A stretch of DNA of 38,208 nucleotides from Enterobacteria phage T3, in sequence record NC_003298.1, one strand, 5' to 3'. Under the pieces are notes generated by a model. It did no database searches and was not told the origin of the DNA. It was given only the letters and a program-made list of their open reading frames with translations. The stretch's first letter is position 1. Every line of letters begins with the position of its first letter. The position numbers and the translations under genes are program-made. Below, piece after piece: positions 1,430-5,630 of the stretch.

Positions 1430-1627
1430 ATGCTCACAGCACTAATTGCACTGGTCTATCTGTGCATCGCTATGTACTTTATGCGAGACTTCAAGCGCGG
1501 TCTGGTAGTCCATAAGGCAACACTGAGTTACTTTAAGTGGGGATTCATCCCACGGTTTACGGTTCGTGAACGCAATGGACGCTTTAAGGCCAATAAGGTA
1601 GGAGTATTCTACATTGCTACGCACTAA
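1430..1627 (+). CDS. Small early protein, function unknown (0.6-like position)
   Basis: 65-aa ORF with GAGGT SD; hydrophobic N-terminus. Confidence 0.5.
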   Translation: MLTALIALVYLCIAMYFMRDFKRGLVVHKATLSYFKWGFIPRFTVRERNGRFKANKVGVFYIATH

Positions 1628-1795
1628 CTCAAAGCACGTAAAGACCGCACTGTATGCGATGGCGTATGGTGCATCGAAACGCAAGGTCAAACGCATCTTA
1701 ACGAGACACCGCAAGATGACCGCACGACAGGCTGCAAGCGCTGTCAAATGGGCTGAATTTACTCTTTACTCTTACAGATAACAGGACACTGAACG

Positions 1796-2905
1796 ATGAC
1801 TTTCACCGAAGCACAAGCCGCACTCGAAGCTATCCGCAACCTACCGATTGAGCGCCTGAACGAACGCCAGACTATGCTGGTGGCTCTTGCGGCTGCCATC
1901 GTGAACGCTGAGACCCAAGATGGGCAATTGACGCAGGCAGCAGGAAACACGGCGCTAGAACGCATGGACTACTGGCAGACCCTAGCGGCGCGCATGAGGG
2001 ATGTTGGTTTCATCAAGCTAGGTAATGGTCACTTTAGCGCAGCGTATCAGCACGAGATGTTGCCGGGTAAGGTCATCAAGGTAGGCTTTAAGAAAGAGGA
2101 TTCAGGCGCAGCCTATGCAGCATTCTGCCGTATGAATCAAGGGCGCGAAGGTATCCCTACGGTGTACGACATTCAGCGTCATGCAGGCTGTTACACGGTG
2201 GTTCTTGACTATCTGAACCCGCTTAACGATTGGTGCTATGGTGAGAGTGACAAGGTGCGTCACCACTTCAAAGCCGCACGGGAAATCATTGAGGAGGATT
2301 GCTTTGATGCTGCCGAAGAGTACCCAATAAGTGACGGGTTCATTGAGACCTGCAAGGATATCCGTAAGTTCTTCTTAGGGATCGCATCGTTCGATTGTCA
2401 CAGCGGTAACATGATGAAAGACCAAATGGGCCGCTTGATTATCACAGACCCGGTATCGTTCAGCGCAGACGACAAGTTAAAGCCGGGTGAGTTTCACTGT
2501 GACCCGGATGAACTAATAGCCGAGATTGAGGCGCTAAGGGCACAGGAAGCCATTGAGCGCTGTGTCAATCGTAAGGCACGCCGTGACCCTAAAGGAGCCT
2601 TTCAGGTAGCGCGTAAAGCACGCGTCAAGTGGCGCAGAAAGGCCGCTAAGCGTGAGAAGTGCAACGCTAAGGTACTCGCTAGGATGCGCATGGACGCCAA
2701 TCAGAATCGCAGGGATGAGCCTAGGGCGCGTATGGTGTGGGGCGATAAGCACTGGCGCAACGCTTGGATGCACCACAACAACCTAAACTTTGCAGAACTG
2801 GAGCGCCGCGCTGCTGCGGTAATGATGCTGCATGATGAGGTGCGCATTCAGTGGGGCAAACCGTTACACATAGACGCATACCTTGACAAGCGTCTACAAG
2901 GCTGA
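1796..2905 (+). CDS. 0.7: Serine/threonine protein kinase, host transcription shutoff
   Basis: 369-aa ORF at the gene 0.7 position and size of T7-group phages. Confidence 0.85.
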   Translation: MTFTEAQAALEAIRNLPIERLNERQTMLVALAAAIVNAETQDGQLTQAAGNTALERMDYWQTLAARMRDVGFIKLGNGHFSAAYQHEMLPGKVIKVGFKKEDSGAAYAAFCRMNQGREGIPTVYDIQRHAGCYTVVLDYLNPLNDWCYGESDKVRHHFKAAREIIEEDCFDAAEEYPISDGFIETCKDIRKFFLGIASFDCHSGNMMKDQMGRLIITDPVSFSADDKLKPGEFHCDPDELIAEIEALRAQEAIERCVNRKARRDPKGAFQVARKARVKWRRKAAKREKCNAKVLARMRMDANQNRRDEPRARMVWGDKHWRNAWMHHNNLNFAELERRAAAVMMLHDEVRIQWGKPLHIDAYLDKRLQG

Positions 2906-2975: not shown

Positions 2976-5630
2976 ATGAACATCATCGAAAACATCGAAA
3001 AGAATGACTTCTCAGAAATCGAACTGGCTGCTATCCCGTTCAACACACTGGCTGACCACTACGGAAGCGCCTTGGCTAAAGAGCAGTTGGCTTTAGAACA
3101 TGAGTCTTATGAGCTAGGCGAGCGCCGCTTCCTCAAGATGCTTGAGCGTCAAGCGAAAGCTGGTGAGATTGCAGACAACGCAGCCGCTAAGCCGTTACTC
3201 GCTACGCTTCTCCCTAAGTTAACCACACGTATCGTCGAGTGGCTCGAAGAGTACGCATCGAAGAAAGGCCGCAAGCCTAGCGCATACGCACCGCTCCAGT
3301 TACTCAAGCCGGAGGCCTCCGCGTTTATCACCCTGAAAGTTATCCTTGCGTCACTAACCAGTACGAACATGACAACCATTCAGGCCGCTGCTGGTATGCT
3401 GGGGAAAGCCATTGAGGACGAGGCACGATTTGGGCGCATCCGTGACCTAGAAGCGAAGCACTTCAAGAAGCACGTTGAGGAACAGCTTAACAAGCGCCAC
3501 GGGCAAGTCTACAAGAAAGCATTTATGCAGGTGGTCGAGGCCGATATGATTGGTCGAGGTCTGCTTGGTGGCGAGGCGTGGTCTAGCTGGGATAAAGAAA
3601 CCACGATGCACGTAGGGATTCGCCTGATTGAAATGCTGATTGAATCCACGGGTCTGGTGGAATTACAGCGCCACAACGCAGGTAACGCAGGCTCTGACCA
3701 TGAGGCACTGCAACTGGCCCAAGAGTACGTGGACGTATTAGCGAAGCGTGCAGGCGCTCTGGCGGGTATCTCTCCGATGTTCCAGCCGTGTGTCGTACCG
3801 CCGAAACCTTGGGTAGCAATCACAGGGGGCGGCTATTGGGCTAACGGTCGCAGACCTTTGGCACTCGTTCGCACTCACTCTAAGAAGGGCTTGATGCGCT
3901 ACGAAGACGTTTACATGCCAGAAGTCTACAAGGCTGTGAACCTCGCGCAAAACACCGCATGGAAAATCAACAAGAAAGTTCTTGCTGTTGTCAATGAGAT
4001 TGTTAACTGGAAGAATTGCCCGGTAGCAGACATTCCATCGCTGGAGCGCCAAGAGTTACCGCCTAAGCCTGACGACATTGACACCAACGAGGCAGCGCTC
4101 AAGGAGTGGAAGAAAGCCGCTGCTGGTATCTATCGCTTGGACAAGGCACGAGTGTCTCGCCGTATCAGCTTAGAGTTCATGCTGGAGCAGGCCAACAAGT
4201 TCGCAAGTAAGAAAGCAATCTGGTTCCCTTACAACATGGACTGGCGCGGTCGTGTGTACGCTGTGCCGATGTTCAACCCGCAAGGCAACGACATGACGAA
4301 AGGTCTGCTGACCCTTGCTAAAGGCAAGCCAATCGGTGAGGAAGGTTTCTACTGGCTGAAAATCCACGGTGCGAACTGTGCGGGTGTTGATAAGGTTCCA
4401 TTCCCGGAGCGCATCGCGTTCATTGAGAAGCACGTAGACGACATTCTGGCTTGCGCTAAAGACCCAATCAATAACACTTGGTGGGCTGAGCAGGATTCAC
4501 CGTTCTGTTTCCTCGCGTTTTGCTTCGAGTATGCAGGCGTTACGCACCACGGTCTGAGCTACAATTGCTCTCTGCCGCTGGCGTTCGACGGGTCTTGCTC
4601 TGGTATCCAGCACTTCTCCGCGATGCTCCGCGATGAGGTAGGCGGTCGTGCGGTTAACCTGCTGCCAAGCGAAACCGTGCAGGACATTTACGGCATCGTT
4701 GCACAGAAAGTAAACGAGATTCTCAAACAGGATGCAATCAACGGCACGCCTAACGAGATGATTACCGTGACCGACAAGGACACCGGGGAAATCTCAGAGA
4801 AGCTCAAACTTGGAACCTCAACGCTGGCGCAACAGTGGCTGGCATATGGTGTAACCCGTAGCGTAACTAAACGTTCGGTCATGACGCTGGCTTACGGTTC
4901 CAAGGAGTTCGGCTTTCGTCAACAGGTATTGGATGACACCATTCAGCCTGCAATTGACAGCGGTAAGGGCTTGATGTTCACCCAACCGAACCAAGCGGCT
5001 GGCTATATGGCTAAGCTGATTTGGGATGCGGTAAGCGTGACCGTAGTTGCAGCGGTTGAGGCGATGAACTGGCTCAAATCTGCCGCTAAGCTGCTGGCTG
5101 CTGAGGTCAAGGACAAGAAGACCAAGGAGATTCTGCGCCACCGTTGCGCGGTTCACTGGACTACGCCGGACGGCTTCCCGGTCTGGCAGGAATACCGCAA
5201 GCCACTCCAGAAGCGTCTCGATATGATTTTCTTAGGGCAATTCCGTCTGCAACCGACGATTAATACCCTCAAGGATTCAGGCATTGACGCACACAAGCAG
5301 GAGTCTGGCATCGCTCCTAACTTTGTTCACTCACAGGACGGTAGCCACCTCCGCATGACAGTCGTTTATGCTCACGAGAAGTATGGCATTGAGTCCTTTG
5401 CGCTCATCCATGACAGCTTTGGGACTATCCCGGCAGACGCTGGTAAGCTCTTTAAGGCTGTGCGTGAAACGATGGTTATCACCTATGAGAACAACGATGT
5501 GCTGGCAGACTTCTACTCTCAGTTTGCCGACCAGCTACACGAGACCCAACTGGACAAGATGCCTCCGCTTCCGAAGAAAGGAAACCTGAACCTGCAAGAC
5601 ATTCTCAAGTCTGACTTTGCCTTTGCATAA
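2976..5630 (+). CDS. 1: Single-subunit DNA-dependent RNA polymerase, T3 specificity
   Basis: 884-aa ORF; specificity-loop segment KRLDMIFLGQFRLQ has Asp (codon 5220-5222) where T7 RNAP has Asn748; T7 numbering anchored by counting R746/R756/Q758 in the remembered T7 sequence. Confidence 0.97.
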   Translation: MNIIENIEKNDFSEIELAAIPFNTLADHYGSALAKEQLALEHESYELGERRFLKMLERQAKAGEIADNAAAKPLLATLLPKLTTRIVEWLEEYASKKGRKPSAYAPLQLLKPEASAFITLKVILASLTSTNMTTIQAAAGMLGKAIEDEARFGRIRDLEAKHFKKHVEEQLNKRHGQVYKKAFMQVVEADMIGRGLLGGEAWSSWDKETTMHVGIRLIEMLIESTGLVELQRHNAGNAGSDHEALQLAQEYVDVLAKRAGALAGISPMFQPCVVPPKPWVAITGGGYWANGRRPLALVRTHSKKGLMRYEDVYMPEVYKAVNLAQNTAWKINKKVLAVVNEIVNWKNCPVADIPSLERQELPPKPDDIDTNEAALKEWKKAAAGIYRLDKARVSRRISLEFMLEQANKFASKKAIWFPYNMDWRGRVYAVPMFNPQGNDMTKGLLTLAKGKPIGEEGFYWLKIHGANCAGVDKVPFPERIAFIEKHVDDILACAKDPINNTWWAEQDSPFCFLAFCFEYAGVTHHGLSYNCSLPLAFDGSCSGIQHFSAMLRDEVGGRAVNLLPSETVQDIYGIVAQKVNEILKQDAINGTPNEMITVTDKDTGEISEKLKLGTSTLAQQWLAYGVTRSVTKRSVMTLAYGSKEFGFRQQVLDDTIQPAIDSGKGLMFTQPNQAAGYMAKLIWDAVSVTVVAAVEAMNWLKSAAKLLAAEVKDKKTKEILRHRCAVHWTTPDGFPVWQEYRKPLQKRLDMIFLGQFRLQPTINTLKDSGIDAHKQESGIAPNFVHSQDGSHLRMTVVYAHEKYGIESFALIHDSFGTIPADAGKLFKAVRETMVITYENNDVLADFYSQFADQLHETQLDKMPPLPKKGNLNLQDILKSDFAFA

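Follow-up and report, generated by a model that had tools for sequence, protein, structure and literature searches.

The small basic frame between genes 0.6 and 0.7 of phage T3 is the 3' part of gene 0.65, with a probable start at an upstream TTG codon

The window analysed here is the whole stretch of 38,208 nucleotides from Enterobacteria phage T3 (NC_003298.1), and the locus of interest lies in its early region, between gene 0.6 and the protein kinase gene 0.7 (Table 1). By megablast, region 1380-1850 matches Enterobacteria phage T3 (KC960671 and NC_047864) and phage T7M at 100%, the coordinates in the T3 and T7M records being shifted by one base with respect to those of the window. Gene 0.65 is placed right after gene 0.6 and right before the gene 0.7 kinase. 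The stop codon of gene 0.6 is found at 1625-1627, and the final 14 nt of this gene overlap gene 0.65, which is read in the +1 frame. We take gene 0.65 to be a class I (pre-early) gene, carried on the host-RNA-polymerase transcript together with genes 0.3, 0.6, 0.7 and 1, and its neighbours, the SAM lyase, gp0.6 and the gp0.7 kinase, are host-takeover or anti-defence factors. The gp0.65 sequence is very basic, with 14 Lys or Arg residues against a single Asp or Glu.

Table 1. Genes and sequence features at the gene 0.65 locus, in window coordinates
Feature	Position	Strand	Basis or remark
Gene 0.3, SAM hydrolase	901-1359		
Gene 0.6, 65 aa	1430..1627	+	ORF list; gp0.6 in T7M/T3; phrog_2385, E=9e-30
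SD-like AAGGTAGGAG, core AGGAG at 1600-1604	1595..1604	+	Inside the gene 0.6 CDS, 9 nt before TTG 1614
ACA codon where relatives outside the T3 clade have the ATG of the gene	1611..1613	+	14 nt before the gene 0.6 stop
Gene 0.65 CDS, opened by TTG, 55 aa and a stop codon, pI 11.4	1614..1781	+	T3/T7M annotation, PHROG, dN/dS, AlphaFold2
40-codon ORF of the sequence-only reading	1659..1781	+	Opens at Met16 of gp0.65, inside the conserved AMAYGAS
C-terminal tttactctttactcttacaga stretch of gene 0.65	1758..1778	+	T3-clade comparison
Gene 0.7, Ser/Thr protein kinase	1796..2905	+	Begins 14 nt past the gene 0.65 stop
Gene 1, RNA polymerase	2976-5630		

The sequence-only reading of this region had described an unlisted, basic frame of 40 codons, opening at 1659 in an otherwise unassigned gap of 170 bp. 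Its ATG at 1659-1661, its TAA at 1779-1781 and its translation, MAYGASKRKVKRILTRHRKMTARQAASAVKWAEFTLYSYR, are all exact, and a frame for a small basic protein is indeed present. The size of the gap was also right, with 168 nt from the gene 0.6 stop to the kinase ATG at 1796, but the gap is not unassigned and the frame is not unlisted, as 1614-1781 is publicly annotated as T3 gene 0.65, a gene already known and present in GenBank/RefSeq since the T3 genome record. What had been found is gene 0.65 minus its 5' third, and we consider it nearly certain that the 40 codons are the last 40 of a real coding gene. An exact look-up of the 55-aa T3 protein returns CAC86262.1, NP_523299.1 and AGM10705.1, together with AFQ97033.1 from T7M, whose record names the CDS gp0.65, and even the 40-aa version is deposited, letter for letter, in Escherichia phage Sekstaphage-1 (WNV46626.1). 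Nor does the frame open at 1659: a TAG in the same frame occupies 1599-1601, and from 1602 onward the frame is already open, overlapping the last part of gene 0.6.

Public records hold at least four incompatible versions of this locus, i.e. a 55-56-aa gene with a TTG or ATG start, a 40-42-aa gene with an ATG start, a 0.6B fusion, and nothing at all. In NC_047864 the SAM hydrolase is labelled 'SAM-dependent methyltransferase', and genes 0.6 and 0.65 are both noted as '0.6B protein'. Among these versions, the comparative data described below favour the independent gene of 55-56 aa.

The length of the frame proves nothing by itself: when 1599-1795 was shuffled 5000 times by mononucleotides, 292 of the shuffles contained an ATG ORF of 40 codons or more, which is hence not beyond chance; the reality of the gene rests on comparative evidence. 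With tblastn the peptide was found in 173 phage records, at ~100% identity in T3-like phages and at 70-75% in Klebsiella KP32-like phages (Przondovirus), and a profile search of 5.8 billion proteins yielded 67 clusters (90% identity) with a modal length of 56 aa, all but a few of them on ~40-kb T7-like contigs. Residues 1-55 of gp0.65 match positions 1-55 of the 55 in profile phrog_10380 (E=2.4e-34; PHROG label: unknown function), and the residues that form the family core in the alignments, A17, Y18, G19, L29, A37, R38 and L51, are all present in the T3 protein.

Selection was analysed on 25 distinct nucleotide versions, from which Erwinia phage L1 and K74PH129C2 (L007) were excluded for their disrupted 3' parts, the set used comprising 10 T3-clade versions and 13 ATG-start relatives, mostly Przondovirus-like. 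None of the 10 distinct T3-clade sequences (13 loci) interrupts the frame, and the 13 relatives all keep it open over 56-58 codons, so the check that had been proposed for the 40-codon ORF, conservation in relatives, turns out in its favour. Pooled Nei-Gojobori dN/dS values, computed only on the portion outside the gene 0.6 overlap, are 0.14 for the T3 clade versus the 13 relatives and 0.19 among the relatives, against 0.88-1.48 for the other two frames of the same nucleotides. Between T3 and its nearest ATG-bearing relative (L091), 6, 5 and 20 sites differ at the first, second and third codon positions, respectively. A further comparison is offered by a divergent metagenomic lineage (L098) that, like T3, does not have the ATG: here 13 synonymous and 13 non-synonymous differences were counted (dN/dS 0.30), a synonymous excess with a binomial p=0.003. 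Indels within the T3 clade come only in multiples of 3, and the C-termini vary by whole codons at the TCT/TAC repeat of 1758-1778, reading LYSYR, LYSSYR or LYSSSYR. Conservation, purifying selection and in-frame indels taken together lead to the conclusion that, on the evidence of these alignments, the frame is a real protein-coding gene, conserved across the T7-like genera Teetrevirus, Przondovirus and Elunavirus.

Two records depart from this pattern. In Erwinia phage vB_EamP-L1 (L003) an 11-nt tandem duplication at 1517-1538 (gcaagatgacc twice) truncates gp0.65 to 39 aa, and K74PH129C2 diverges after about residue 48; relatives of the Pantoea phage SK1 type (P0046 and P0040) carry an intact gp0.65 of 60 aa.

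Within the T3 clade, about 8 non-synonymous and 4-5 synonymous events were counted in the ORF, giving a dN/dS of ~0.4-0.6 that is indistinguishable from neutrality; the gene is nearly invariant there, and selection is therefore not measurable at this scale, the comparison being underpowered. It should be noted that the 10 distinct T3-clade genomes share a valley of low diversity at ~1535-1830, with 0-0.05 differences per site against 0.1-0.5 in the flanks, which runs from the 3' half of gene 0.6 through the complete gene 0.65 to ~35 nt into gene 0.7. For gene 0.65 the synonymous divergence in the clade amounts to 0.05, compared with 0.29 for genes 0.6 and 0.7. The valley could reflect a recent recombinational sweep or a constraint at the nucleotide level.

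Concerning the structure of gp0.65, an AlphaFold2 model built with 51 homologues has a mean pLDDT of 85.4 and a pTM of 0.68, with a pLDDT of 91 for residues 11-20. It predicts helices at residues 6-17, 22-31 and 37-54, arranged as a basic, helix-turn-helix-like three-helix bundle. The most conserved residues are the near-invariant turn Y18-G19-A20 and the pair A37-R38 at the start of predicted helix 3. The nearest counterparts of the model are small three-helix or HTH domains, such as the RecX repeat, the Ltp HTH-like repeat, the small-terminase N-terminal HTH, ArdK and eL36; its structural matches include HTH proteins as well as many unrelated three-helix bundles, none of them significant in Foldseek. 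No Pfam family was found for T3 gp0.65 at E<=1, a 77-aa relative giving a match to HTH_Tnp_IS1 below threshold (E=0.11), and a profile search of the PDB sequences returned no solved homologue (best E 0.009, to a de novo helical barrel). The PADLOC catalogue of defence and anti-defence systems gave no match for gp0.65 either.

A role of gp0.65 as a dispensable early accessory factor in host takeover, binding nucleic acid or an acidic host protein by way of its predicted basic, HTH-like three-helix domain, is our best but speculative guess, less likely than not, made because of the predicted shape, the charge and the neighbourhood only. Dispensability is indicated by the absence of the gene in a Przondovirus-like contig described below (L086) and by its truncation in the Erwinia phage L1 record. 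No functional or expression report on this gene was found in the literature covered, to which the phiYeO3-12 and T3 genome papers do not belong; T7 papers list 0.6A/B only as dispensable or deleted. The protein is among the few pre-early products of T3-like and KP32-like phages without an assigned function, and given its host-takeover and anti-defence neighbours it is a reasonable, though not urgent, candidate for functional screening.

The start of the gene deserves closer inspection. In an alignment of the start region from ~35 distinct sequences, an ATG is found in every sampled ORF-bearing relative outside the T3 clade, always at a distance of 14 nt from the stop of gene 0.6 that follows it. 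T3 does not share this family trait, as it has ACA at this place, followed by TTG 1614. The T3 clade and L098 read TCT ACA TTG CTA where the relatives read TCT ATG TCG/TTG CAA; the relatives L090, L091, L099 and L100 add to the comparison at 1611-1613, and among them L099, with ATG TTG CTA, is likely an intermediate toward the T3 junction. From the junction comparison including this sequence, the T3 clade would have lost an ancestral ATG by two substitutions, which appear in the gene 0.6 frame as TAT GTx to TAC ATT. The ancestral start would then be an ATG one codon upstream of TTG 1614, replaced by ACA in this clade. The missing junction ATG is a clade-specific change of start, and the membership of T3 in the family, which is based on homology, stands.

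Several features point to initiation upstream of 1659. Among six starts, TTG 1614 has the strongest anti-SD duplex (-8.4 kcal/mol), the others being those of genes 0.3, 0.6 and 1 (-6.9 each), of gene 0.7 (-4.0) and ATG 1659 (-0.9). The SD core varies by lineage: the T3 clade reads GGAG, L098 reads GGGG, and the ATG-start relatives read GGGGA or GGGAA. Residues 3-15 (RTNSKHVKTALYA) align with RTDLKHIRAALHV in Przondovirus and with RTEWKHVKQALYM in Erwinia phage L1, and are still recognisable in more distant groups. In one of these groups Met16 is a Leu (TLAYGAT), so that Met16 is to be considered an internal residue of the family. Conservation, predicted helix 1, the SD and the start used by the relatives all lie upstream of 1659, and the boundaries of the 40-aa version are most likely too short. 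The sequence-only reading was right that ATG 1659 has no Shine-Dalgarno sequence; its suggestion that the frame may for this reason not be expressed was directed at the wrong start codon, because an internal Met had been taken as the start.

We give a probability of roughly 0.6 to the combined reading that gene 0.65 is real and independently started at TTG 1614. T3 ribosomes would start at TTG 1614 by means of the AGGAG at 1600-1604, probably coupled to the translation of gene 0.6, the stop codon of which lies 11 nt downstream, and the product would be a very basic protein of 55 aa. TTG 1614 by itself is a probable start codon, the remaining probability being divided between initiation at ATG 1659, a fusion by frameshift and a frame that is not expressed; judged on the comparative evidence, a 55-aa independently started protein is the most likely product, ahead of a 40-aa peptide or a +1 fusion. 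TTG is a weak initiator, and ATG a far better one. Furthermore, in a Przondovirus-like sequence (L086, on the same contig as L104) gene 0.6 also ends with ACA TTG, and that TTG is followed by a junk frame of just 16 codons, so the T3 TTG could be incidental. Pattern scans of viral and metagenome contigs, aimed at more divergent ACA-TTG sequences for a selection analysis of codons 7-16, gave nothing beyond copies that were nearly identical, a single phage without the cassette and matches by chance.

The best surviving alternative, which we nevertheless consider unlikely, is that the T3 product is a 40-aa peptide from ATG 1659, made either independently of an SD or by re-initiation 32 nt past the gene 0.6 stop. 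Besides the superiority of ATG as an initiator in a clade from which the ancestral junction ATG is gone, an argument for it comes from the comparison of the ATG-less lineages T3 and L098, where clear purifying selection is seen only from 1659 on: codons 17-56 carry the signal, with 13 synonymous and 8 non-synonymous differences (dN/dS 0.19), whereas the 10 codons from the gene 0.6 stop to ATG 1659 (codons 7-16) show 0 synonymous and 5 non-synonymous ones. Selection therefore does not prove translation of these 10 codons where the ATG is missing. Gene callers have also picked ATG 1659, giving products of 40-42 aa, in Sekstaphage-1, F5M1C, Bumbleweed and MegaDucksbill. However, the five upstream replacements are without exception conservative ones (V>I, K>R, Y>H, A>M); neither a stop nor an indel has accumulated there. 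ATG 1659, lacking an SD, is in addition the start region with the lowest predicted accessibility of the six (0.26), it lies much farther from the gene 0.6 stop than TTG 1614 does, and Met16 is not kept as Met across the family. Moreover, the residues ahead of Met16 (1-15, LRTNSKHVKTALYA) hold most of helix 1 of the confidently predicted three-helix fold, and a protein begun at Met16 would miss this helix.

A silent relic is a more doubtful alternative, according to which the T3-clade frame has been untranslated since the loss of the ATG, and only looks conserved due to the low diversity of 1535-1830. The loss itself, the within-clade dN/dS not separable from neutrality and the low synonymous divergence in the valley would all fit this explanation, as would the dispensability of the gene elsewhere (absent in L086, truncated by the duplication in Erwinia phage L1). 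It is opposed by the synonymous excess between T3 and L098, which arose after the ATG was lost, by the concentration of T3-L091 differences at third codon positions, by a frame that is intact in 10 of 10 distinct T3-clade sequences with in-frame indels only, and by an SD that is stronger in T3 than in the ATG-start relatives. An RNA element, as ALTERNATIVES to a protein gene, was rejected, with no Rfam match at E<=1 over 1300-2000; the RNA fold of 1590-1800 is not unusual (z=-1.44), no terminator-like sites were found, and the sole promoter-like site, at 1321-1350, is a minus-strand one that lies outside the ORF.

The least probable of the alternatives, to which we assign only a small chance, makes the frame the second part of a gp0.6B fusion, produced by programmed +1 ribosomal frameshifting near the end of gene 0.6. 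In its favour, the phiYeO3-12 record describes exactly the same frame, whose peptide is 96% the same as that of T3 gene 0.65, as a 'putative 0.6B protein' with a 'putative +1 frameshift', phiSG-JL2 does likewise, and the T3 RefSeq note reads '0.6B protein'. The 'possible gene 0.6B' of T7 shows the +1 geometry of T3, with an ORF opening 17 nt ahead of the 0.6A end, and a T3 clade without an ATG at the junction would also suit a fusion. Such a shift would be confined to 1601-1627 (GGA GUA UUC UAC AUU GCU ACG CAC UAA), between two stops, and inspection of this sequence reveals no codon that permits +1 re-pairing of the P-site tRNA. Between the SD-like element and the stop lie 20 nt, compared with 3 nt in prfB. 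Signals for independent initiation do exist, as AGGAG with TTG in T3 and as ATG with a purine-rich GGGGA or GGGAA stretch in the relatives. Upstream of the junction the +1 frame is not conserved as protein and is closed in T3 by the TAG at 1599-1601, and the phage that carries no gene after 0.6 has lost the junction ATG. The same ATG also opens genes that are unlikely to be gp0.6 fusions, as described in the following paragraphs.

Concerning T7 itself, a homology between T3 gp0.65 and the T7 0.6B tail was considered and rejected, as hhalign gave a probability of 1.3% and aligned only six overlap-encoded residues. The second part of the T7 'possible gene 0.6B' (NC_001604, L005, 882-1099) comprises 63 aa. 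In the close T7 relatives L020, L021, L063 and L067 the ORF encodes 72 aa, and its C-terminus, ERAAWHRRKEKVKAKKLAALEQALANTLNAIS, sits in another frame of T7 (ORF 965-1099); by this comparison, a frame-shifting indel seems to set the 0.6B-tail ORF of the T7 reference apart from that of its relatives.

Returning to gene 0.65, its junction with gene 0.6 appears to be of wider use. The embedded ATG is conserved across T7-like phages, and in ~80 kinase-anchored loci (L013-L089, around 930-1190) it opens unrelated ORFs, which include the 0.65 family, 77-aa variants, the T7-type tail (63-72 aa) and a 59-aa family. In L026 (742-1188) it opens a 148-aa protein of the endonuclease VII family (PF02945, E=1.6e-25) and in L035 (301-1164) a 287-aa Bro-N protein (PF02498, E=3.3e-10), proteins for which expression as gp0.6 fusions is implausible. 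L086, by contrast with these loci, has no gene between 0.6 and 0.7 (~1144-1200), just 37 nt including a (CA)n run, and its gene 0.6 ends in FYIATH* with ACA TTG, the same junction as in T3.

It is conceivable, at somewhat less than even odds, that gene 0.6 and the start codon inside its 3' end (M-[S/L/T]-x-[R/H]-[T/I]) provide a conserved module junction of T7-like phages, behind which unrelated early genes are swapped in and translated by coupling to gene 0.6. If this is true, the '0.6B frameshift protein' annotations in T7, phiYeO3-12 and phiSG-JL2 would be mis-assigned independent genes, and the T3 clade would be a natural example of a junction whose ATG disappeared and whose role passed to a TTG with a strengthened SD. 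The discovery value of the 40-codon frame is little, and its practical use is one of annotation; by-products of its analysis are the arguments against the '0.6B frameshift' annotations and the cassette-like junction where gene 0.6 ends.

A final observation is related to the small early gene 0.4. Three proteins (P0028, P0064 and P0067) combine a gp0.4-like N-terminus (MIKYGLTQE..., Pfam Phage_T7_GP04) with a gp0.65-like C-terminus, the joins being located at or near a common AMAYGA motif, an arrangement suggestive of a recombination or deletion event involving two small early genes with this motif in common.
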